Shown piece after piece: positions 9,062 to 46,288 of a stretch of 64,000 bases of DNA. Position 1 is the first letter of the stretch. Each line of letters begins with the position of its first letter. The translations under genes were made by a program, and so were the position numbers. The stretch comes from an uncultured virus (IMG/VR IMGVR_UViG_2579779168_000001). Taxonomy: Duplodnaviria > Heunggongvirae > Uroviricota > Caudoviricetes. The notes beneath the pieces are model-generated. The model saw only the letters and a program-made list of their open reading frames with translations. It did no database searches and had not been told where the DNA came from. The stretch lies in the IMG/VR virus record IMGVR_UViG_2579779168_000001, one strand, 5' to 3'.

Positions 9062-9754
9062 TCAGAACAGATCATCCTTGAAGGGCTCGATGGTTCTCGG
9101 ATCGTCGTCGCCTTCGCCGGCCTTGTTCACGCGCTTCGAGACGATCCACTCGCCCAGCTCCCGCGGCGGCTGCTTCAGCAACTCCATTCCACCCGAGCCG
9201 TCGAGCCAGGCGTCGAAGTCCTGCTTCAGTAGCATGCACGGCATCCGGTCGTGATACTGCGCCGTCCAGGCATTGGCCTCCCGCACGATCATGGTGCAGG
9301 TCGTGATCTCTTCGCCGCTCTCCGGATCGCGGAAACGCTCGTAGAGCCCAGCGAAGGCCAGCAGATCGCCATCGGCCGCGGAGAAGAAGTGTGGCACCCG
9401 GTCCTTCTTCTCACCCGTCCATTCGAAGAAGCCGCTGGCAGGGATGATGCAGCGCCGGCTCTTATAGGCATGCTTGAAAGTGCCGCTGGTATCGACCGTC
9501 TCGACCTTGGCGTTGAAGGTTGAGAGCTTGAAATCCTTGAGCCCGCCCTTGTGCCAGCCGGGGATCAGCCCCCAGCGCGCCTCTCGCAGCTCGCGGCCGG
9601 TCTCGCCCTTCACGATGATGTGGATCAAGGTCGTGGGAGCGATGTTGTAGCGCGGCTGCAGATTGCCCTTCTCGGCCGGCAGCTTGTTCGTCAGCGGCTG
9701 GCTGAAGGCGACGATCTCGCCCCAACTATAGGCCTGCGAAAAACGCCCGCACAT
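9062..9754 (-). CDS. SOS response-associated peptidase (SRAP/YedK family, abasic-site processing)
   Basis: MCGRF N-terminus, RYNIAPT, RCIIPASGFFEW and HDRMP motifs. Confidence 0.95.
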   Translation of the reverse strand: MCGRFSQAYSWGEIVAFSQPLTNKLPAEKGNLQPRYNIAPTTLIHIIVKGETGRELREARWGLIPGWHKGGLKDFKLSTFNAKVETVDTSGTFKHAYKSRRCIIPASGFFEWTGEKKDRVPHFFSAADGDLLAFAGLYERFRDPESGEEITTCTMIVREANAWTAQYHDRMPCMLLKQDFDAWLDGSGGMELLKQPPRELGEWIVSKRVNKAGEGDDDPRTIEPFKDDLF

Positions 9755-9826
9755 GAACGCCACCCTTTCCCAACGCGCTGGCGCCGCGTCGTCCGTTGTC
9801 GAGACGGCCCATGAGGCCTCCCGGCC

Positions 9827-10195
9827 TCAGCTTACCGCAGCTTCCGCCTTTGGAAACAGGTGGAGGACATAGCGCTCCGGCCTATTGGACTGCCATCCGG
9901 CGCAACAGGCCTCGATCGCGGCGCGCTCCGCCTCCTCCCAGACATGCATGTGCTCGATCGCCTCGGACGGCACCTTATCCACCCATCCCAGGTCATCGGC
10001 ACTCTCAAGTTCGCAGATCGCCCAGTACGCCTTGCCGGCTGTCACGCCCGCTTTCTCGAAAACCGCCTGCGCGGCCGCGAGGCCACGGCTGGTTTCCTCC
10101 GGGCTCGCGCCTTCAATCTGCAGATAGACGCTCCTAGTCGCCTCCAATGCGGCGGCGGTTCGGCTCTCCGGGTTGCTCAGATGGAAGTTGGTCAT
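9827..10195 (-). CDS. Hypothetical protein
   Basis: ORF with GGAGGG RBS in the LexA-boxed operon. Confidence 0.65.
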   Translation of the reverse strand: MTNFHLSNPESRTAAALEATRSVYLQIEGASPEETSRGLAAAQAVFEKAGVTAGKAYWAICELESADDLGWVDKVPSEAIEHMHVWEEAERAAIEACCAGWQSNRPERYVLHLFPKAEAAVS

Positions 10196-33564: not shown

Positions 33565-34608
33565 TCAGACCCCCAGCATCTGCGAGATGGCAACGGGATA
33601 GCGGATCACCGCGCCCCAGGTGCCGCTGGTCTTCTTCTGCTGCCAGGAGGAGAGCTGACGGACGATCGCGTGATCGCGGAGCTTCTCGTTGAACGCGCAG
33701 TAGCCGGTATCGTGACCGTCGAAGCTGTCGGCGATCAGCTGGACGACGTTGCCGGCCGCCGTGCCGTACCGATAAGAGGTCTTCACCGTCAGGTTGGGGA
33801 AGTTCTTCTGCAGCAGGTCGGAGACGCTGATGCCGAAGGTGTTGGTCGCGGTGAGCGCGACTTCCGAACCGGGCGACATGGCCAGGGTGAGCTTGTCGCT
33901 CTTCTTCACGCGGCCGGCGGTCTGAGCCACGAGCTGCGAGAACATCGCCTGGATGTCGGCGAATACCTCGTTGGCGGTCGCGACGATGGCGTTGTTGTTG
34001 ATCCACTTCACGCCACCGGCGGCCTTGGTGGCCGGGGTGAGCGCAGCGGAGAGCGACGGGTCGTTGAGAAGGCCGTAGTTCTGCAGGCCGCTGACGCCGA
34101 AGTGGTAGGTGTAGTCCGCGAACTTGTCGAGCGTCGACGCCGCCGAGGTCTGGAGCTCGCCGACCCAGTTGAGCTTGGCCGCCCCAGCCCGGTCGATCTG
34201 GAGATCGCCGTATTCCACGACGGTCTGGAACAGGTAGGACTGGCGCTGCGGGAAGGTGGCGTTCGCGTCCGACCGACCATTGGTATTGAAGTCGCCATAG
34301 CTGGAGACTTCGCCGGTATTCTCGACGACCGTGAAGACCGCGGTCTGGGCAGTCCAGTCGCCGGTCTTCTTCTCGCCGAGAATGTCGGCGCCCTCGTTGG
34401 GCGATTGGAGGATGCGGACCACTTCGGGATCCACATACTGCGTCAGCCAGGCCGGGATACCGCCGCTGGCAGTCGTGGCGAGCGCCGGCTGCGCATCGAG
34501 CGCGAACTGGAAATCGGCACGGAACTCTCGGGGCATCCAGTCCATCGCCAACGGCAGATGGATGCCCCACTCGCGCTCGAGGCGAGCGAAGTCGGAATTG
34601 CGGGTCAT
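33565..34608 (-). CDS. Major capsid protein (DUF2184-like)
   Basis: GEKKTGDW, SSYGD, RQSY, YGLLNDP, QKKTSGTWG; GGGAG RBS before MTRNSDF. Confidence 0.88.
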   Translation of the reverse strand: MTRNSDFARLEREWGIHLPLAMDWMPREFRADFQFALDAQPALATTASGGIPAWLTQYVDPEVVRILQSPNEGADILGEKKTGDWTAQTAVFTVVENTGEVSSYGDFNTNGRSDANATFPQRQSYLFQTVVEYGDLQIDRAGAAKLNWVGELQTSAASTLDKFADYTYHFGVSGLQNYGLLNDPSLSAALTPATKAAGGVKWINNNAIVATANEVFADIQAMFSQLVAQTAGRVKKSDKLTLAMSPGSEVALTATNTFGISVSDLLQKNFPNLTVKTSYRYGTAAGNVVQLIADSFDGHDTGYCAFNEKLRDHAIVRQLSSWQQKKTSGTWGAVIRYPVAISQMLGV

Positions 34609-34622
34609 GTGTGGTTGCTCCC

Positions 34623-35123
34623 TCAGCCCAGCGGGGTGTCGGACATTTTGACGAGTTCGCCAGCCGCGCCGGCGGTCATGGCGAACCATTTGGTTTCGGT
34701 GCTGCCGGCGACGGTGGCGCCCGCGGCCGCGAAGCTGATCGTGCCGTCTGCGTTCTTGGCGAAAGCCTTCATGCCGACGGTCACGGCGCCGGCGCCGGCG
34801 TTCTTCACCCAGAAGTCGCCGCCGTTGAACAGTTCGCCGATGCCGAAGCCGGCCGGGATCACCATCCCGGATTCCGCGAGGTAGGTGGTGATGAGCGCCT
34901 GGAGATCCCGATGCAGGAAGCCGGTCGGGGCGCCGGTGCCGGTGTTGGCCAGGATGCGGTTCGTCGAGGCATCGGCCCAGCAGAAGCGGCCGATGGTGAG
35001 CCCGCTAGGGCCCGCGACGAAACCGCCCTCGACGGAGAGCACCGAATGGCGCGGATTGGCGCTGGCGAAGTCGCCTTCGACGGCCGGCGCCTGGGTCAGA
35101 TTGACCTGGGTCTGGAAAGGCAT
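34623..35123 (-). CDS. Head decoration / cement protein
   Basis: FQTQVN...APAVEGDFASANP...GDFW; directly upstream of the capsid gene. Confidence 0.82.
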   Translation of the reverse strand: MPFQTQVNLTQAPAVEGDFASANPRHSVLSVEGGFVAGPSGLTIGRFCWADASTNRILANTGTGAPTGFLHRDLQALITTYLAESGMVIPAGFGIGELFNGGDFWVKNAGAGAVTVGMKAFAKNADGTISFAAAGATVAGSTETKWFAMTAGAAGELVKMSDTPLG

Positions 35124-35139: not shown

Positions 35140-36909
35140 TCAAACCTTGAGGCGGTTGGCGTGCGGGAAGCGGTTCTCGAATTCCTTCGAAGCAGCGGCG
35201 TCCTGCGCGATCGGCTTGCGCGCCGGCGGGATGTCGCCGGGCTTGGGCTGCAGCTTCAGGATGGCCGGGAAGGCGGACGGGTGGACGCCGTCGACATCGA
35301 CGCCGAGCGAGGTCAGGGCGGTGCGGTAAACCGCATCGGCGCTGTCATGCGCCATTGCGAGGTCGCCGACGTAGGGCCGGACGGCGCGCTCCGCCTCGCG
35401 GATATCCTGCTGGGCCTTGATCGCAGCGGCGGTAGCCGACTTGGTCGCGGACTTCACAGCAGCGGCGATTGCCGCGTCCATGGCCGTCTTGGTGACCTTG
35501 TCATCATCCTCTTCGCCGTCGTCGTCCCCGTCTTCGGCCACCTTCTTTTTCTTGTCGTCCTCGTCGTCGGAATCGTCCTCATCGGCGGCGAGATCGGCTT
35601 CCTCCTCGGGAAGGATATCGGCCAGAGCCTCGATGACCTCGGCGGCGTCCTCGATCGAGGAATCCTTCGCGAGCTTGCCTTCGGCCGCCGTCTTCAGGCC
35701 GGTCAGGATGGCCGGCTTGCTGGCCGCGAAGTTCGCGGCGGTCACCTTCGCGAGCACAGGGGCGAGGTCGATCTTGGCGTCCTGCGCCAGCTTCGGCTTG
35801 AGGTAGAGGGAGAGAGCGGTCAGCGCGGCCGCGCCACCACGGGTGATCGATGGCTTCTTTGCCATGCTGATGAACTCCTTGATTTTGGGGATAGGCTTCT
35901 CATCGCCGACAACGACGTCCGGCCCGGCGCGGCCTTCTTTGACGAGGGCGACGTGGTTGCCGATCAAATCGCGCATCACGCCGTCGTACCTGGCCCCTTC
36001 GAAGGTGCCGGGGGTCATGTCCGCGCGATATCGATACGCGCTCGACAGTTCTTTCTGCGTCTCGGCTTCGATGGCCTTGATCGCCAGACCGTCCCAGATC
36101 GACAGATCGGCCTTGAGGTAAGGGGCTTCCCAGATCGGGTTGCTGATGGAGCCGGCGACAGCCTCGTGCTCGTGATCATCGGCTGTCACTGGCCGGTGGA
36201 TGTTCAGGAGCGGCTTTCCAGCGAAGGATGCCGCGGCCTTTTCCAACTCCTCCGGGTCGCGGAGAAGCTGGTAGAGCCGGTCGGGGTTGAGCCCGAGCCC
36301 TTCCCAGTCGGGGATTTCACGCCCGTAATAGGGGCAGACATTCGCCTTGCTGATCGGCGTGCGCGCCACATGGAGATGGCCGTCCTGATCGTAGGTGCGC
36401 GCTGATGCGCGGTCGAAGGCGAGCGCATCCCCTGCCATCTTCGGCTTCCAGTCTTCATCGATCTCGGAGAATTCTTCCGGCCCCAGTTCGATGGGGCCTG
36501 CGTATGGTTCGATCTGCGCGATATCGATGTCGCCCGGGTCGTACGTGACTGTGATGTGCGGCCTATAGGCGTCATGATCCCAAGAGGCGCCGGCTTTCCG
36601 AAACTGCTGCCAGCGCTTGGCAAGGTCAGAGGATTCGAAGCGAAGGACGATGGCGCCCTTATCACCGAGCTTCTCGATTGAGCGCTGCGCCTCGTGATCA
36701 GCTAGAGACGGTATTCGAATGCGGTCGAAATCGTCCGGGGCCGCGAACCAGTCGAACTTGTCCTTACTGTAGGCGATCGTAACGTGAAGGTCGGAGGCCG
36801 CGAGAGGCTTTGATAGCCCCTGTTCCATCGCCCAAGCGATCAAGGCGTCTGCGTTCAACACCGGGCGCCGCGCGAACAGCGTCCGTAGCTCGGGCTGCTC
36901 CGTCGCCAT
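35140..36909 (-). CDS. Acb1-like 2H phosphodiesterase fused to a DUF2213 putative prohead protease/scaffold
   Basis: N-terminal LHVTIAYS and PHITVTY motifs; then ISKANVCPYYGREIP, ELSSAY, NHVALVKEGRAG; GAGAG RBS before ATG 36909. Confidence 0.85.
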   Translation of the reverse strand: MATEQPELRTLFARRPVLNADALIAWAMEQGLSKPLAASDLHVTIAYSKDKFDWFAAPDDFDRIRIPSLADHEAQRSIEKLGDKGAIVLRFESSDLAKRWQQFRKAGASWDHDAYRPHITVTYDPGDIDIAQIEPYAGPIELGPEEFSEIDEDWKPKMAGDALAFDRASARTYDQDGHLHVARTPISKANVCPYYGREIPDWEGLGLNPDRLYQLLRDPEELEKAAASFAGKPLLNIHRPVTADDHEHEAVAGSISNPIWEAPYLKADLSIWDGLAIKAIEAETQKELSSAYRYRADMTPGTFEGARYDGVMRDLIGNHVALVKEGRAGPDVVVGDEKPIPKIKEFISMAKKPSITRGGAAALTALSLYLKPKLAQDAKIDLAPVLAKVTAANFAASKPAILTGLKTAAEGKLAKDSSIEDAAEVIEALADILPEEEADLAADEDDSDDEDDKKKKVAEDGDDDGEEDDDKVTKTAMDAAIAAAVKSATKSATAAAIKAQQDIREAERAVRPYVGDLAMAHDSADAVYRTALTSLGVDVDGVHPSAFPAILKLQPKPGDIPPARKPIAQDAAASKEFENRFPHANRLKV

Positions 36910-36958: not shown

Positions 36959-37195
36959 ATGACAGAGCATCCTTCCGACCCCACCGAAGTGATCGAGGCG
37001 CTCAAGGAGCTGGCCCGCGCCAGCTTCGTCGACAATTTCCCAAACATCCCAGAAGACGAGACGATCGAGGGCGAGGCCGCGATCATGATCGGCGAGATGC
37101 TGGCGGACTTCCGTAAGATCGCGGCTGGGGCGTCTGATGGCGCCGCCATCGCCCAAGCGTGGATCGACAGGGTCTTCGACTACGGCGAAGAGTAA
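36959..37195 (+). CDS. Small acidic hypothetical protein, opposite strand within the head operon
   Basis: 78-aa ORF filling the gap between two head genes. Confidence 0.6.
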   Translation: MTEHPSDPTEVIEALKELARASFVDNFPNIPEDETIEGEAAIMIGEMLADFRKIAAGASDGAAIAQAWIDRVFDYGEE

Positions 37196-37959
37196 TCGTC
37201 CTTCAGGATCGGTTCCGCGTAGCAGCGGCAATTCCAGATCGCGCCAGGCAACGCGTGGTGGCCGGGATCGCACTCCGGCGGGTCGTCCCATCGGAACGAC
37301 TTGCCGTTAAGCGCACGATGCGAGGGACGGACATCGCTGTCCCCCGACGTGCGCCAAATGAAGTGCGTGGAACCTATGCTCTCCGCCCTCGCCCGCGTCA
37401 GTTCGGCCGAGGTACGAGACACTTCCGTCCGCGCGATCAGATCGGCGCGGCTCTTGGTCACCTCGCCGGTTTTCATGATCTCAGCAGCAATTTCGCTAGC
37501 GCGGGCGCCGTTGCTGATACCCTCGATGGTAAGCCTGTGGACGCGCTCCGCGGCCTCGGTAGGAAGCGACGTGATCAGTGACACTTGGTCCGCGAGCCGC
37601 TGCCGCAGTAAAGCGCCAGTGGGAGCCTTCGCGATCTCCCGATGGACTGCGATCCCCATCTCCCGAGAGACAGCCATCCAAGCCTTTCGGTCCCGAGCGG
37701 CGACTTCCGCCACCATGCGGCCGCCGACCGAACTGGCCCAGGCTTCGATGGTACCTGCGTAGCGCCGCAGCGCTCGTTCGACGATACCGGCCGACGCTGG
37801 ATCAGCCTGGTCAAACAGGCCCATGACCAGATCGCCAATGTGGCGCGCGACCTTGCGCAGCTGTCGGGAATACGTCACCTCAGCCTTACGGGCCCGGATG
37901 AATGCGCTCTTGGCGCTGGGCTCCGCACGGTCGAAGGCGAGGCGATGACGACGGCTCAT
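37180..37959 (-). CDS. Head morphogenesis protein (Mu F / SPP1 gp7)
   Basis: RADLIARTE, WRTSGDSDVRPSH and PG.IWNCRC motifs. Confidence 0.92.
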   Translation of the reverse strand: MSRRHRLAFDRAEPSAKSAFIRARKAEVTYSRQLRKVARHIGDLVMGLFDQADPASAGIVERALRRYAGTIEAWASSVGGRMVAEVAARDRKAWMAVSREMGIAVHREIAKAPTGALLRQRLADQVSLITSLPTEAAERVHRLTIEGISNGARASEIAAEIMKTGEVTKSRADLIARTEVSRTSAELTRARAESIGSTHFIWRTSGDSDVRPSHRALNGKSFRWDDPPECDPGHHALPGAIWNCRCYAEPILKDDYSSP

Positions 37960-39521
37960 GCCTCAGCCTCTTCGGTTTCCTCCTCGTCCGTCTCAGGTGC
38001 CGGAGGATCGTTCTCGCCAGGTGCCGGAAGCGGCACGTCGTCCACATCCAAACCGGCGTAGGGCGATTCATCATCGCTGGCGAGGCGCTTGCGAACCTCA
38101 AGAGGGTCGAGCACGCCGGAGTCGATGTAGACGGCGTCGGTGTCCGCCTCCGCCTTTCGCATCTCAGCCTTGGCCTTGTCGTCGAGGCTCCAGAGCGGTT
38201 CGAAGACGAAGCCGATATCGGGGTCGACGTCGCCGAATTCCGACATCTGGATCAGGTTGATAACCGTCGTCAGGTGCGGGCGCAGGAACTTCTCCTGCAG
38301 TGCCTCGATCCCGTCATAGTAGACCCGGATCTCGCCCTCGGACGATGCATTGAGCCCCGACGGCGTGATGCCTGTGAACTTCACCAGCGGGATGCCGGCA
38401 ACCGAGCAGATGTGCTCCTGGCTCTGAGCCTGCAGGTGGTCGAGCGTGCCCAGCGGGGTGGAGACGTTGAAGAACTCCTCCGCCGGGTCGTTCGGACCGG
38501 CACCCTTGTTCAGCACCATCGTTCCGCGGTTGTCGCGGAGGTTGTTGAAGAGCTCGACGCGGCGGAAGAGCCCATCGGCGTCGACATTCAGCACATTGGC
38601 CAAGTCGATCTTGATGCCGCTGACCGAGAATGAGCTGATAAGGTCAGCGACGCTCTGCCGGGTCCGTAGCCAGTTGTCGACATAGGGCTTCGCCATCTGC
38701 GACATGCTGAGGCCGCCGAACGAATAGGCCGGCTTCAGAAGGTCAGGCACCTCCCGAGCGATGAAGGTCAGCAGCCGGGTCGCATGGACCTTCTGCCCCT
38801 GCACGTACCAGGCGGACGGCTTGTACCAGCTCGGCTTGAGCGGATTGCTCGTCTCGTATTCAGCCGGATAGCACCAGACGGCCTCGACGGTTCGGAAGCC
38901 TTTCAAGGCACCCTTCCCGACTTTGGCCTTCGTTACCGTGTCGGCGCCGTTGCCGATCGGGGTGGCGAGCTCGGGCCCCTCGGTTTGTCCGAGGTCGGCG
39001 AAGAGGTGCGCCCGGCCGAAGAACCCATCCTGCTCCGTGATCCTCTGGAACAGCTCCTTGACGCCGAGCTCCTTGAGCTTGTCGCCAATGGCCTTGATCT
39101 TGGCGGCCTTGTCGTCCCCGCCGGCGGCCGTGATCCGAATCCACTGCCGGGTCGCCTCGGTCGCGATGATCTCCGAGATGCGGCGAAACTCGGGACGCTG
39201 GGCGAGCTCCGACAGGTGCGGGAACCCGAGCCACGCCATTCCCTCGTTGTAGAGCCCGGCTGCCGCCTGCTGAATCGCCCAGGACTGGCCCGGCAATGCG
39301 CTTTCGTCCATCGCCATGCCGTTCGACGGCAGAACGCCCGCAGGAGGCGGGAGGATCTTGAACGGATTGACCTTCTCGGCCTCTGGCTTGGCCGGCGGGA
39401 TGCGCGACCGCGCGACGGTCTCAGGGCTCACCGCCACGGGCTTGCGCGGCTGTTCGGTGGCAACCACAGGCGCTGGCTGCGGCCCCGCGATCCACGCCGC
39501 GATACGCTGGCGGAGGCTCAT
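37956..39521 (-). CDS. Portal protein (DUF1073-like)
   Basis: LAQRPE, PAYSFGG, IPLVKFTGITPSGLNASSEGE; follows terL. Confidence 0.9.
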   Translation of the reverse strand: MSLRQRIAAWIAGPQPAPVVATEQPRKPVAVSPETVARSRIPPAKPEAEKVNPFKILPPPAGVLPSNGMAMDESALPGQSWAIQQAAAGLYNEGMAWLGFPHLSELAQRPEFRRISEIIATEATRQWIRITAAGGDDKAAKIKAIGDKLKELGVKELFQRITEQDGFFGRAHLFADLGQTEGPELATPIGNGADTVTKAKVGKGALKGFRTVEAVWCYPAEYETSNPLKPSWYKPSAWYVQGQKVHATRLLTFIAREVPDLLKPAYSFGGLSMSQMAKPYVDNWLRTRQSVADLISSFSVSGIKIDLANVLNVDADGLFRRVELFNNLRDNRGTMVLNKGAGPNDPAEEFFNVSTPLGTLDHLQAQSQEHICSVAGIPLVKFTGITPSGLNASSEGEIRVYYDGIEALQEKFLRPHLTTVINLIQMSEFGDVDPDIGFVFEPLWSLDDKAKAEMRKAEADTDAVYIDSGVLDPLEVRKRLASDDESPYAGLDVDDVPLPAPGENDPPAPETDEEETEEAEA

Positions 39522-42699: not shown

Positions 42700-44001
42700 T
42701 TAGGCCCCGGCCCAGAGTCGGAGAAGCTCAGTGACCGCATCGCCTGGTTTGATCGATCTCGGCTGAACATGAGCCAGCCCGAGGGCATGCCAGACTTCTC
42801 GCTCAATCGAGCGGAACACCGCAGTGAAGCTTTCCTCGCGGCCATAGACGAAGGGACCTATCGATGCGGGTTGGCCATCCAGCTCGCATCGCTCCTCTTC
42901 CCAATCGTTGATTCGAGAGTGAGCCAATGCGTGGAAGCCCATCACCTCAGCATCAATTTCAAAGGGCACTCCTGGTCTCGATGCCCTTCTTCGCACTGCC
43001 TCCGCCATCGCCAGCGCCTGCGCCGCCGGTGCAACAAGCCAAGCCGGGTTGACGTAGTGCACTTCGGGCTCTGCCCGCGAGGCTACGGCTTCTCGAAACC
43101 CGTACACCTCGATGGAGCCATTATCGCGGATGAGCCACCGAGACGGGCTCTGATCAACGACCTCGACGCCGTGGGCGATTGGCCTCGGGTGCCAGCTGAT
43201 GCGACCGTCCCCTGCGGGAAAAACGGGTTGCTTTTCGAATAACATTCGACCTTCCGGGCGCAGCAACTGCGTCCAGGCATTACGACTGTCGAGATCTTGC
43301 AGCTCTAGCGAGCTTTGCGGGTACACACAGAAACGGAAAAAAATCCCTCTAGGCGGGTTTGGCCATGACATGCGGCAACGACCATGAAGCGCACCCCGAT
43401 CAGCGCTGTCTCGAAGAAAGGCTGACGCCCTCGATCGCTCTTCAGCAATCCGTTCACTACGGGTCCGAGCGTCCCAAAAGACGTTCTGCAAGTCCTGCAT
43501 GGTCATGGGCGCGGCTGCCAGAGCGCGCCTGATATAGCTCGCAGGCGGATCGCCATAGCCGTGCGGAGCTAATGTGGAGCGGTTGACTCGGATGACGACA
43601 ACGCCTGTGTCGTCGCTCTCTGGATCCAGTACAGCATGGCATTCCAAACTCGCCAGCGGCGGGTCGATCACGCTCTGGACCGCCGCTTGAAGCTTCTGAG
43701 CAAGCTCAGTCACCCGCGGGAGCTTCGTGATCCCGCAACACACCCGAGGCGTGGATTTGTCCTCATCTGCTCCAAGAACGAGTGTCCCGCCCCAAGCGTT
43801 AGCGAGCGCCACGATTTCTCGCGCGATCCCGTCTCTCCCGGGCCGATCAAGGTCCTCTCCCTTATGCCACCGGTGCGGGCCAGCACCGTTGGGGACAGAA
43901 AGATCTCGTTTGAATTCAATATCGGCCGTTTCCGAGGTGCCGATCAGGCCAAGGATGTCCTGCCAAGTGATGGCGTTGATCGCGATCGTTGAGATGCTCA
44001 G
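42700..44001 (-). CDS. AlbA_2 (Schlafen-like) domain protein
   Basis: ETADIEFKRD...IVALANAWGGTLVLG...VIRV...APH...YIRR; AGGGGG RBS before CTG 44001 (ORF open to 44217). Confidence 0.85.
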   Translation of the reverse strand: MSISTIAINAITWQDILGLIGTSETADIEFKRDLSVPNGAGPHRWHKGEDLDRPGRDGIAREIVALANAWGGTLVLGADEDKSTPRVCCGITKLPRVTELAQKLQAAVQSVIDPPLASLECHAVLDPESDDTGVVVIRVNRSTLAPHGYGDPPASYIRRALAAAPMTMQDLQNVFWDARTRSERIAEERSRASAFLRDSADRGALHGRCRMSWPNPPRGIFFRFCVYPQSSLELQDLDSRNAWTQLLRPEGRMLFEKQPVFPAGDGRISWHPRPIAHGVEVVDQSPSRWLIRDNGSIEVYGFREAVASRAEPEVHYVNPAWLVAPAAQALAMAEAVRRRASRPGVPFEIDAEVMGFHALAHSRINDWEEERCELDGQPASIGPFVYGREESFTAVFRSIEREVWHALGLAHVQPRSIKPGDAVTELLRLWAGA

Positions 44002-44155
44002 ACTCGATCCCCCTGAAATTATCAGCTCTTGCGCCCTCTGCGCTCTGTTGGTGCACCCGCTTTGAAACTGAGATCGACAGTCTCGATCGAGGCCCAGCGA
44101 ACAGCTCGCGCACGTCGGGCACGGCGTCAACGAGAGGATCGCGAACCAAGTCAGT

Positions 44156-45400
44156 TCACGGGGACTTTGGAAACCAGACCTCGAGCAAGCCCGACAAATC
44201 TCGGCCTGGGAGGACAACTTTCCGCGCCGAGAATTTCGTCTGCGCAGATACTATCGACGCAACGGAAGCCGCTGTCGCAGAGTCAGCGTCGTTGAAATAG
44301 CGGACTTCTCCCTGGGATGGAGCCGCCTTCACTTGCTCGATGCCCTTGGCCACCTTGATCTTCAGGCCGTCGCTAGTCGATGCAACCTTCTCAAGCCTCT
44401 GCTGAGCCTCTTTCGCAGCTGATGTTTGGCCGCTATCTGCGATCTGAAAAAATACGCTCGTGAGCGCAGGGGAACCCGACGGATCCTTTACAACCTTGCT
44501 ATCACTCGAAGTCGCGCTCGCCAAAGCCCCGATCGCCTTGGACACCGCTTCGGCATTCTTCTGAAGGCTATTGTTACCGCCCAAAACCGAAGTAGCCTCG
44601 GCAGTCGCCAATGCAACAGAGCTTTTTCTGATATCGTCGGCGTTTACCCCAGCTGCCTTCTCAAGAGACTTGGCAATATCAAGGCCTGATTGCTTGACCG
44701 CAGCCTCCTCTCCATCCGTCTTTGCTTTCTCAGCAAGAATTGGACACGCAATAGACGCCATCCCGAACAAAGCGAAACCATGGCTCAGTGGTGTGAACAT
44801 CGGGAGACCCAAATTTGAGTCCTTACCCCAAATTACGCCAATTACCGTTCCGTTTTCATCGAAGATTGGTCCCCCGCTCATGCCGGGAACGATATTGTTC
44901 GACATGATGATCTTGCCTAGCTCGCCGAGCCCTCTGTTCGAGACGATGCCGGGAAACATGACCAGGGGATTCGAGTTCCCGATAGGATAACCAGCAGCGG
45001 TGATACCTTGCTCCGCCCTTGGAGCAACGCAGCTCAGCGAGACGCTTCTTGAAATACCAGCGGACCTGACCGAGTCGCTGCTAATGTATAGCAGGCACAA
45101 ATCAAGCATCGGCGACGTACAGTCAATCTTTCTTGCTGTATATCCACTTCCTTCGCGTGTCTTAAGTGATACAGATATTCGATCTTTGGTTTCATCAAAC
45201 AAATTCAACACATGGCGAGCCGTAACAATATAGCCATCGGCACCAATCAAAAACCCAGAGCCGTGATCTTTCTTTTTCCCGTCCTGGTCCTTGATCTCAA
45301 TGTATACTACAGTGTCAGCGAGCTGCGAGAGGCTAGTTTGGGACATCACTGCGGTGCTAACGCAGAAAATCGCCAGAGCAGCCAAAAACAGCTTCAACAT
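44156..45400 (-). CDS. Secreted trypsin-like serine protease with a LytR_C-like C-terminal domain
   Basis: Signal peptide; GSGFLI, TARHV (His), DLCLL (Asp), PGMSGGP (Ser). Confidence 0.88.
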   Translation of the reverse strand: MLKLFLAALAIFCVSTAVMSQTSLSQLADTVVYIEIKDQDGKKKDHGSGFLIGADGYIVTARHVLNLFDETKDRISVSLKTREGSGYTARKIDCTSPMLDLCLLYISSDSVRSAGISRSVSLSCVAPRAEQGITAAGYPIGNSNPLVMFPGIVSNRGLGELGKIIMSNNIVPGMSGGPIFDENGTVIGVIWGKDSNLGLPMFTPLSHGFALFGMASIACPILAEKAKTDGEEAAVKQSGLDIAKSLEKAAGVNADDIRKSSVALATAEATSVLGGNNSLQKNAEAVSKAIGALASATSSDSKVVKDPSGSPALTSVFFQIADSGQTSAAKEAQQRLEKVASTSDGLKIKVAKGIEQVKAAPSQGEVRYFNDADSATAASVASIVSAQTKFSARKVVLPGRDLSGLLEVWFPKSP

Positions 45401-45409
45401 TGGATTCCC

Positions 45410-46288
45410 CTAGATATTATAGAGACCACGAATGCAAGCGAGATCACGGGGGTGGATATTCTTGCCACCGGCTGAGATGAGCTCTCTCCACACTCCGTTA
45501 TCGTCCTTATATTCTCCCCATCCCTCTAGAACGGGATACATCATGACAGAATCCTTGTTGAATTTCGGATCTCCAACGCAGGCGGTAGTCGCGGGTAGCC
45601 TTTGCAATATTTGCTCAGTGGTTGTTTTCGGCGACCACTTATAATCTAGCATATCGGCAATAACTTTCTCGGGATTCCATCGCACTGCCCCGGGAAACAT
45701 GTGTTCATGCTCCAACCCAAGAGCATGACCGAATTCGTGTTCAATTGTCGGACTATATGGATCCTCTAGATTCATTGTCCTCTTGGTTTTCGGCGCAAAC
45801 AAATTTTCACGCCCAACCAAGGAGAAACTACCGATTCCCGAATCGAAAGTGATTCTAATATGCGATTTCTCTTGAGAGGCGGAAAAATCAAATGCAATTT
45901 TTTTTGGGATATTACCCTGCAACCATCTATTAGCACCATCGATCACACGTTGCTGTGTCGCTTGATCACCGGCCATAAAGAAAACGCCGAGCGTGATTTT
46001 GTCACTACTCGGGGTCAATCCATCAGTTGAAAGCCAGCAGTTTTTTCGGAATGCCGTGCCATAAGGGGTCGGACGAAAGTCGACGTCAGCGGGCGTCACG
46101 GGCTGCGTGGCCCCGGAAGGTTGACTACCAGGTGAAATGGGATCTGACGGCAGCTCGTCTTGGCGCAAAAAACTATCTGGCGTCGTACAAACAAACCGCC
46201 GCGAAGGAGCTTGTGCGAGAGAGGGCCCCAGGATCAGAGTTGCGCCTGACATGCATGCGCAACTCTGAAGGAACTGCCGCCTGTCCAT
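45410..46288 (-). CDS. Tat-exported metzincin (astacin/M12-like) metalloprotease
   Basis: MDRRQFL twin-arginine signal; HEFGHALGLEHEH; SVMMYP Met-turn. Confidence 0.9.
   Translation of the reverse strand: MDRRQFLQSCACMSGATLILGPSLAQAPSRRFVCTTPDSFLRQDELPSDPISPGSQPSGATQPVTPADVDFRPTPYGTAFRKNCWLSTDGLTPSSDKITLGVFFMAGDQATQQRVIDGANRWLQGNIPKKIAFDFSASQEKSHIRITFDSGIGSFSLVGRENLFAPKTKRTMNLEDPYSPTIEHEFGHALGLEHEHMFPGAVRWNPEKVIADMLDYKWSPKTTTEQILQRLPATTACVGDPKFNKDSVMMYPVLEGWGEYKDDNGVWRELISAGGKNIHPRDLACIRGLYNI

Follow-up and report, generated by a model that had tools for sequence, protein, structure and literature searches.

The anti-CBASS enzyme Acb1 (CBASS, an antiphage signalling system based on cyclic oligonucleotides) is known from phages T4 (57B) and FBB1 (7T26/7T27) as a stand-alone 2H phosphodiesterase of about 150 residues. 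According to Hobbs et al. (2022, PMC9117128), its active site is formed by a tetrad (H44, T46, H113 and T115) together with stacking aromatics, E141 and a C-terminal lid, and T4 Acb1 as well as 9 of 9 further homologues cleaved 3'3'-cGAMP and cAAA. 2H domains have also been described in polyvalent phage proteins, fused to MuF or portal, where they were proposed to degrade nucleotide signals (Iyer et al. 2017, PMC5512222; the account is repeated in Iyer et al. 2022, PMC9503650), and extra domains "including ... proteases" were reported on 13 of 75 viral 2H enzymes (bioRxiv 10.1101/2025.08.21.671373). The general theme, 2H and NUDIX domains carried by a portal, a MuF protein or a capsid peptidase and presumed to be packaged and injected, is thus published already. 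Here, we analysed a window of 64,000 nucleotides from an uncultured virus (IMG/VR record IMGVR_UViG_2579779168_000001), in which one gene, at 35140-36909 on the minus strand, encodes an Acb1-like domain, a linker, a DUF2213 protease domain and a scaffold-like tail in a single polypeptide. Acb1 on a protease-scaffold protein is a little-described arrangement of the known theme: in a full-text literature search, which did not extend to Supplementary Table 2 of bioRxiv 10.1101/2025.08.21.671373, neither an Acb1-DUF2213 nor an Acb1-prohead-protease fusion was found described. We think it fairly probable that Acb1 is here a capsid-targeted cargo, held in a swappable slot on a protease-scaffold polyprotein and freed from it by cleavage at A-x-D sites.

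The gene forms a single uninterrupted frame of 589 residues plus a stop codon, and both Pfam domains were matched within it: Acb1 (PF23474) at residues 10-156 (E 6.6e-38, 130.1 bits with the cut-off at 27, covering positions 2-143 of the 144 in the profile) and DUF2213 (PF09979) at residues 171-337 (E 3.7e-47, 160.9 bits with the cut-off at 22, covering all 167 positions from 1 to 167), scores well outside what chance would give. This bears out a sequence-only reading of the same DNA, made beforehand, which had placed an Acb1-like domain in frame with DUF2213; all the motifs quoted in it were located, LHVTIAYS at residues 41-48, PHITVTY at 117-123, PIELGPEEF at 139-147 and MAGDALAFDR at 158-167. 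Against the PHROG families, residues 159-588 match phrog_2229, "head maturation protease" (E 1.5e-132), and residues 29-155 the C-terminal end of the portal family phrog_146. Scans of the whole protein with other libraries returned 0 families from NCBIfam and 0 from PADLOC.

The same two-domain protein was recovered from Bosea sp., at 92% and 82% identity, in a search of 5.8 billion clustered proteins. Codons of the Acb1 part, compared with those of locus L002 of Bosea sp. TAF32, gave a synonymous divergence (dS) of 0.94 and a nonsynonymous divergence (dN) of 0.075, a dN/dS of 0.079; the ratio for the DUF2213 codons in the same comparison was 0.047. Synonymous differences dominate, and the Acb1 part is under purifying selection. 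Among 25 aligned fusions, 44 to 92% identical, none had a stop codon between the two domains. An assembly or frameshift artefact was considered and rejected, because the fusion recurs in the Bosea sp. records, shows no stops, and has a low dN/dS in its Acb1 part. Since the frame is conserved without a stop ahead of the protease, translation must give the fused protein. Such fusions were seen solely in prophage and metagenome proteins.

One could suppose that the fusion is merely apparent, either because only the internal ATG at 36438 (M158) is used, yielding an ordinary DUF2213 protein, or because the Acb1 part is a decaying remnant. Stand-alone DUF2213 proteins do start at the place of M158, a purine-rich GGAAG lies 6 nucleotides upstream of it, and the M158 column reads Met in four and Val in three close fusions. 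However, a translated, stop-free Acb1 frame necessarily gives the fusion, to which an internal start would add a product rather than replace one. Decay, for its part, fits neither the intact frames of all 25 fusions, nor the dN/dS of the Acb1 part at a dS close to 1 (0.94), nor the invariance of the catalytic residues, and we regard the whole proposition as hardly credible.

On the upstream side, the same frame stays open up to an ATG at 37149. A start there was rejected: the extra stretch is antisense to a conserved small plus-strand open reading frame (ORF), and homologues begin with MATEQ or MAREQ at the residue matching 36909, which makes 36909 the likely start of the Acb1-DUF2213 gene. 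The small ORF (36959-37195, plus strand) encodes 78 acidic residues between the MuF gene and the Acb1-protease gene, and is kept at the same place in two relatives, L001 (9732-9965) and L002 (within 9717-9977). It had no Pfam, PHROG or PADLOC match, and its best ESM Atlas score, 0.82, was too low to carry weight.

An AlphaFold model of the whole protein had a mean predicted local distance difference test score (pLDDT) of 84 and a predicted template modelling score of 0.40, with disorder at residues 159-168, 339-353 and 438-469. This pattern of confidence fits a layout of beads on a string. The first bead, the Acb1-family domain (residues 10-156, 36442..36882, minus strand), was modelled with pLDDT mostly above 85. 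Among solved entries, the closest sequence to it is found in the Pam3 portal (8hds), over the last 150 residues of that protein (E 6.7e-21); the domain also matches the FBB1 Acb1 (7t26, E 3.7e-10). Foldseek with the model placed 7t26 and 7t27 at ranks 1 and 2 (E 5e-8, TM-score 0.78 on the target), ahead of the phosphodiesterase of Burkholderia phage BCSR5 and of LigT (from E 3.5e-5). The two HxT motifs, H42-V-T44 (36778..36786, minus strand) and H118-I-T120 (36550..36558, minus strand), align respectively with the HTT and the HIT of 7t26. Across the 25 fusions, H42, T44 and H118 are present in 25/25, while position 120 is Thr in 24 and Ser in 1. Profile, fold and tetrad therefore agree with the earlier assignment of the domain to the Acb1 family.

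Other residues are kept as well: an aromatic at position 12 (25/25), W110 (24/25), E145 (25/25) and W154 (21/25). W154 aligns with a Trp near the C-terminus of the FBB1 Acb1, and is taken, from this alignment, to be the lid Trp. The aromatic at position 12, W110 and E145 were compared with Y12, W74, F107 and E141 of the known enzyme, a comparison in which residue-by-residue equivalence is not established. The domain thus shares with the T4 and FBB1 enzymes the Pfam family, the 2H fold, the HxT/HxT tetrad and the aligned C-terminal Trp. It differs from them in forming the N-terminus of a 589-residue head protein; relative to FBB1 Acb1, the identity is just about 25%, and the end that carries the lid runs here into a linker. 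The predicted activity of the domain, as we infer it, is the hydrolysis of defence signals made of cyclic di- and trinucleotides, 3'3'-cGAMP and cA3 among them.

Alternatively, the 2H domain may act on a substrate foreign to CBASS, such as RNA ends with a 2',3'-cyclic phosphate, signals resembling 2'-5' oligoadenylate, the cA3 of type III CRISPR systems or nucleotides with a regulatory role in the host; the protein would then be a head-borne effector that processes RNA or degrades other signals. RNase or oligonucleotide-degrading roles were indeed proposed for 2H domains on MuF and portal (Iyer et al. 2017, PMC5512222), and viral 2H phosphodiesterases are reported to form groups with differing substrate ranges (bioRxiv 10.1101/2025.08.21.671373). 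Pfam also returned 2_5_RNA_ligase2 and LigT_PEase as secondary, weak matches (E about 2e-3), and a search for SMODS (PF18144) cyclases found one in 0 of the 2 related host genomes (those behind L002 and L001), a single profile that covers not all cGAS/DncV-like nucleotidyltransferases (CD-NTases). Nevertheless, the LigT-type profiles reach 18 bits where that of Acb1 reaches 130, the top structural match is a solved Acb1, ahead of the BCSR5 enzyme and LigT, the tetrad, the aligned W154 and E145 are conserved, and every Acb1 homologue tested by Hobbs et al. (PMC9117128) cleaves 3'3'-cGAMP and cAAA. A non-CBASS substrate is on this balance quite improbable.

The second bead, the DUF2213 domain (residues 169-337, 35899..36405, minus strand), has the fold of a capsid-maturation protease. 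Modelled alone, with a pLDDT of 85, it was aligned by VIA-align with T4 gp21 at Z 10.8 (root mean square deviation 2.8 over 130 of 165 residues), followed by the proteases of varicella-zoster virus (Z 8.8), human cytomegalovirus (6.5) and Kaposi's sarcoma-associated herpesvirus (6.0), with unrelated MCE domains appearing from Z 5.7. In Foldseek, the top rows were again herpesvirus proteases and T4 gp21, the best at E 3.8e-3. The assignment as a protease is made because of the VIA-align result and the consistent identity of these top Foldseek rows. H238, S289 and H319 are invariant in 63 aligned sequences, and H246 nearly so; the spacing from His to Ser resembles that of T4 gp21 H85/S140. T4 gp21 and herpesvirus assemblin thus share their fold with the domain, and the Drexlerviridae (T1-like) protein that controls CBASS sensitivity shares its layout, an N-terminal protease and a C-terminal scaffold. 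They differ from it in that there is no significant sequence or profile similarity; moreover, the motif of T4 gp21 is I/LxE, with the cut behind its Glu (bioRxiv 10.64898/2026.03.04.709575), whereas the candidate motif here is A-x-D.

The last segment (residues 338-589, 35143..35898, minus strand) is a helical, acidic, scaffold-like tail, made in the model of helices and disordered acidic stretches. Structure comparison and model thus uphold the predicted layout, in which a prohead-protease fold comes first and a scaffold-like tail after it. The assignment of the tail also draws on conserved A-x-D motifs and on homology with gp24 of the Pbunavirus Pa193 (9b40_G, sequence match E 1.2e-10). Pa193 gp24 was detected in mature virions and is called a putative scaffold by its authors, and its residues 286-326 form a helix-turn-helix pentamer beneath the capsid vertices (PMC11456595). 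The supplements of that study give gp24 a Mascot score of 5061 and, in the material consulted, no peptide map; the word "protease" is absent from the main text. The Pbunavirus DUF2213 proteins (Pa193 gp24, PDB 9B40; JG024 gp22) resemble the protein studied here in family, gene position and A-x-D motifs of the tail, and in presence in the virion, known for theirs. They differ by beginning directly at the protease domain, without a cargo and without the LAFDR motif of the joint.

Between the two beads lies a disordered joint (residues 157-168, 36406..36441, minus strand; pLDDT below 50 at residues 159-168), which contains M158 (36436-36438) and the triplet A164-F-D166 (36412-36420). A164 and D166 are invariant in 63/63 aligned sequences. 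In this alignment, six A-x-D triplets have both Ala and Asp conserved at 0.92 or more, at 164-166, 375-377, 414-416, 476-478, 520-522 and 568-570. A conserved Ala stands at position -2 of a conserved Asp in 6 of 7 cases outside the folded protease domain and in 0 of 8 inside it, and at the five sites of the tail the next residue is Ala or Ser. Motifs of the same kind occur in the presumed substrates. The capsid protein of Pbunavirus JG024, identical to Pa193 gp26 over the aligned residues shown, reads A62-M-D64-S65-N66, and the Pa193 capsid model begins at residue 66, as does, by alignment, the deposited E217 chain. In the capsid protein encoded in the window, A36-L37-D38 is shifted by one residue from the Pbunavirus site and lies just ahead of the segment aligned with the residues at which the E217 and Pa193 capsid models begin. 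Finally, A70-M71-D72 is common to the JG024 portal and to the portal of the window (39306-39314, minus strand), whose N-terminal regions otherwise differ. Clipping at AxD sites had been proposed from the sequence alone: on the strength of the conserved sites and of their placement in capsid and portal, A-x-D appears credible as a cleavage motif, and a cut at the joint itself may follow from it by extension. As a separate observation, the shared A-M-D at portal residues 70-72 fits a common maturation cut, and the Pa193 portal is reported to lack its initial 93 residues both in the map and in liquid chromatography-mass spectrometry (PMC11456595).

The N-terminus of the DUF2213 protein behaves as an exchangeable slot for cargo enzymes. 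Relatives 88-91% identical over the DUF2213 part are found without Acb1, and begin about 13 residues ahead of LAFDR. At the DNA level, the Acb1-less locus L001 matches the window through the small divergent ORF, splits from it about 20 nucleotides past the ORF start, and rejoins it where the last part of the joint motif (LAFDRA) is encoded. The Acb1 segment, roughly 0.5 kb, therefore behaves as a cassette. We then looked at the N-terminal domain of the best 120 DUF2213 relatives, a list biased by the presence of Acb1 in the query: 30 carried Acb1 (2 of them also with NUDIX), 31 NUDIX alone, 1 PF27659, and 58 no other Pfam domain. One metagenomic representative (P0169) combines NUDIX, Acb1, an ADP-ribosyltransferase (ART) and DUF2213, in this order. 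NUDIX fusions to capsid peptidases were described in 2022 (PMC9503650); they use the same slot and the same logic, some of the relatives carrying both domains, and the difference lies in the cargo enzyme, hence in the presumed target signal. In Mesorhizobium prophages, NUDIX and a Cys-rich CxxCxGxG segment occupy the slot that holds Acb1 here. Separately, two cargo-bearing DUF2213 proteins, P0028 and P0036, share a leader of about 25 residues (…AAA.G..LGIP.AVGEEFVGKD) ahead of their cargo domains.

Seen from the Acb1 side, residues 1-165 were searched, without a profile, against 1.84 billion representatives, and 2168 proteins were retrieved at E 0.001 or better. Partners were counted by Pfam on 142 of the top 150 Acb1-like representatives (150-3865 residues long), the other 8 (2209-3865 residues) and 2018 further representatives being left out of the count. 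Acb1 was joined to DUF2213 in 19 (always on the N-terminal side), to Peptidase_S78_2 in 8 and to Peptidase_S78 in 3; this makes 30/142 prohead-protease fusions, with Acb1 N-terminal of the protease in 29 of the 30. Other partners were portal families (32, two of the matches being below cut-off), MuF (9), ART domains (20) and NUDIX (10). On a quickly built tree of 149 Acb1 domains, the partner changed at least 20 times (minimum 4, shuffled mean 33); the tree is weakly resolved, with 15 of 146 branches well supported, forcing at least two origins of the DUF2213 fusion.

That the same domain would be carried by other head genes in related phages was confirmed, with portal (Pam3) and MuF as carriers. 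The Pam3 gp3 portal-Acb1 (8HDS) and the 2H-portal and 2H-MuF proteins of Iyer et al. (2017, 2022; PMC5512222, PMC9503650) resemble the present one in the idea of attaching a counter-defence 2H enzyme to a protein of the head interior, and Pam3 has in addition a syntenic head module. The passages searched of the Pam3 structure paper do not mention the Acb1 domain of the portal. The carrier differs: it is in those cases the C-terminus of the portal (12 copies per virion) or MuF, and not the N-terminus of a protease-scaffold, which potentially offers many more copies and adjoins a protease. Judged by what Iyer et al. (2017) require of polyvalent proteins, the gene has an effector domain on a head-interior protein, with sister forms on the portal and on MuF, together with ART and NUDIX.

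These observations lead us to the following scheme. The gene would encode a head-assembly polyprotein made of an Acb1 phosphodiesterase, a capsid-maturation serine protease and a C-terminal tail that serves as scaffold and binds the capsid. Inside the procapsid, to which the tail would bring the entire protein, the protease would cut at A-x-D in the capsid protein and the portal, in the scaffold tail itself and, at A164-F-D166, in the joint, and Acb1 would come free as a piece of about 18 kDa. Production of the enzyme would be late, in step with head assembly, and the enzyme would probably stay enclosed in the virion and enter the next cell along with the DNA. At the front of the protease-scaffold, the N-terminus would offer an exchangeable place for cargo, open to one counter-defence enzyme or another. 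The analysis shows the domain identities and folds, the conserved catalytic motifs, the selection on the frame, the cassette-like gain or loss of the domain, and the A-x-D sites with their conservation and placement; what we infer in this scheme is the substrate, the cleavage, the packaging and the injection.

Several points weigh against packaged and released cargo. An 18 kDa domain on every scaffold copy would heavily load the head interior, although the internal start at M158 could leave most copies free of cargo. CBASS is described as acting late in infection (bioRxiv 10.64898/2026.03.04.709575), so that delivery of the enzyme by injection is not obviously needed. The SMODS search given above, with 0 of 2 related host genomes, also counts against the scheme. 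At the joint, the residue following D166 is Arg in 55 of 63 sequences, and the joint motif may for this reason not be a cleavage site. With regard to the protease, Foldseek with the DUF2213 model returned nothing at E 0.001 or better, and hhalign of the DUF2213 alignment against T4 gp21 gave a non-significant probability of 0.14%, leaving the catalytic residues unmapped. Lastly, among isolated-phage records, 816 had a tblastn match and 0 covered 80% of the protein, so that no cultured phage supports the fusion directly.

A different explanation for the fusion, that of the sequence-only reading, ties the antidote to the trigger. That reading had given as background that head-assembly proteins are implicated as CBASS triggers, and this is in print (bioRxiv 10.64898/2026.03.04.709575; bioRxiv 10.1101/2023.05.21.541620). 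CBASS would sense the prohead protease-scaffold, and a fused Acb1 would appear at the same time, in the same place and at the same dose, packaging into the virion being incidental or absent. It is reported that phage prohead proteases switch CD-NTases on with a cut in an activation loop, and that T4 gp21 by itself is enough for this in vivo (bioRxiv 10.64898/2026.03.04.709575). In Drexlerviridae, all escape mutants from type I CBASS mapped to the protease-scaffold fusion gene, and the scaffold domain alone induced CBASS toxicity (bioRxiv 10.1101/2023.05.21.541620). The distribution of the domain also speaks for this explanation, Acb1 being found on three prohead-protease Pfam families (the 30 of 142 representatives above, N-terminal in all except one) and switching fusion partner at least 20 times on the best tree. 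It is thus plausible that the fusion is tied to the protease being a CBASS trigger. On the other hand, the slot is not specific to CBASS, as it also holds NUDIX (31/120) and the NUDIX-Acb1-ART combination of P0169, and portals (32) and MuF (9), equally common partners, are not reported as triggers of the protease type. The tree that gives the switches is the weakly resolved one, which forces only the two or more origins stated, and a diffusible signal does not obviously need its hydrolase beside the trigger. Coupling to the trigger as the explanation of the fusion, with packaging incidental, is in our view unlikely.

The NUDIX and ART domains in the same slot, together with Acb1 on portals and MuF, point to general capsid loading rather than to a pairing specific to CBASS. 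Trigger coupling and packaged cargo are nonetheless compatible, and both could have operated. Acb1 would then have been welded to the protease repeatedly and independently, in three families, because protease activity switches CBASS on, with a swappable dock that also fills the virions with many copies of counter-defence enzymes; each protease molecule able to cleave a CD-NTase would carry its own signal-destroying enzyme. We put this combined version forward as doubtful.

If the capsid-loading account holds, the N-terminus of the protease-scaffold would be a natural capsid-loading tag, reused for Acb1, NUDIX and ART, of interest to phage biology and to the engineering of virion cargo. A-x-D would become the cleavage rule of DUF2213, a large uncharacterised family of head proteases that includes those of the therapeutic Pbunaviruses, where the protein is called just a putative scaffold. 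A natural protein that joins a class of CBASS triggers to an anti-CBASS enzyme would also let the coupling of trigger and antidote be asked genetically. The main value of the locus lies in this testable link from a CBASS trigger, reported only lately, to an enzyme that counters CBASS, and in the lead that it gives on the DUF2213 cleavage rule.

The surroundings of the gene are those of a head module. On the same strand follow, in order, the terminase large subunit, the portal, a short MuF, the Acb1-DUF2213 gene, the cement protein and the major capsid protein, an order of head genes identical to that of cyanophage Pam3. The portal (37956..39521, minus strand; Phage_portal_3, E 3.9e-82) bears no cargo domain and has the A70-M71-D72 motif in its N-terminal part. 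The MuF-like head morphogenesis protein (37180..37959, minus strand; Phage_Mu_F, E 7.1e-22; phrog_324) is a short form, also without a cargo domain. Downstream lie the cement or minor capsid protein (34623..35123, minus strand; XM1_gp53_minor_capsid, E 1.2e-33; Phage_cement, E 3.1e-21) and the major capsid protein (33565..34608, minus strand, probable start 34608; phrog_264, E 3e-67; PDB sequence matches 8frs_B and 9b40_A). In the rest of the 64-kb window, the tail and baseplate genes resemble those of E217 and Pam3, and a replication module is present; in the window as a whole, no CBASS cyclase was found. Because of these tail and baseplate genes, the order of the head genes and the replication module, we concluded that the element is a myophage or prophage of a Bosea-like alphaproteobacterium.

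Two further features of head and neighbouring genes were recorded. The portal of JG024 (L006, 204-2501) has a C-terminal extension of about 240 residues, and the corresponding extension of the Pa193 portal, residues 529-765, has no density in cryo-electron microscopy; this Pbunavirus extension may be another head-borne cargo domain. In the window, a low-GC island (0.51 versus about 0.63) is found at 42700-46288 on the minus strand, between the terminase and the replication genes. It encodes a Schlafen/AlbA_2 protein, a trypsin-like peptidase and an astacin-like peptidase, of which the trypsin-like one is matched in PADLOC by protease modules from defence systems (RT-Protease_XI, E 8.9e-16; LmuA). 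The island may be a prophage-borne defence cassette.

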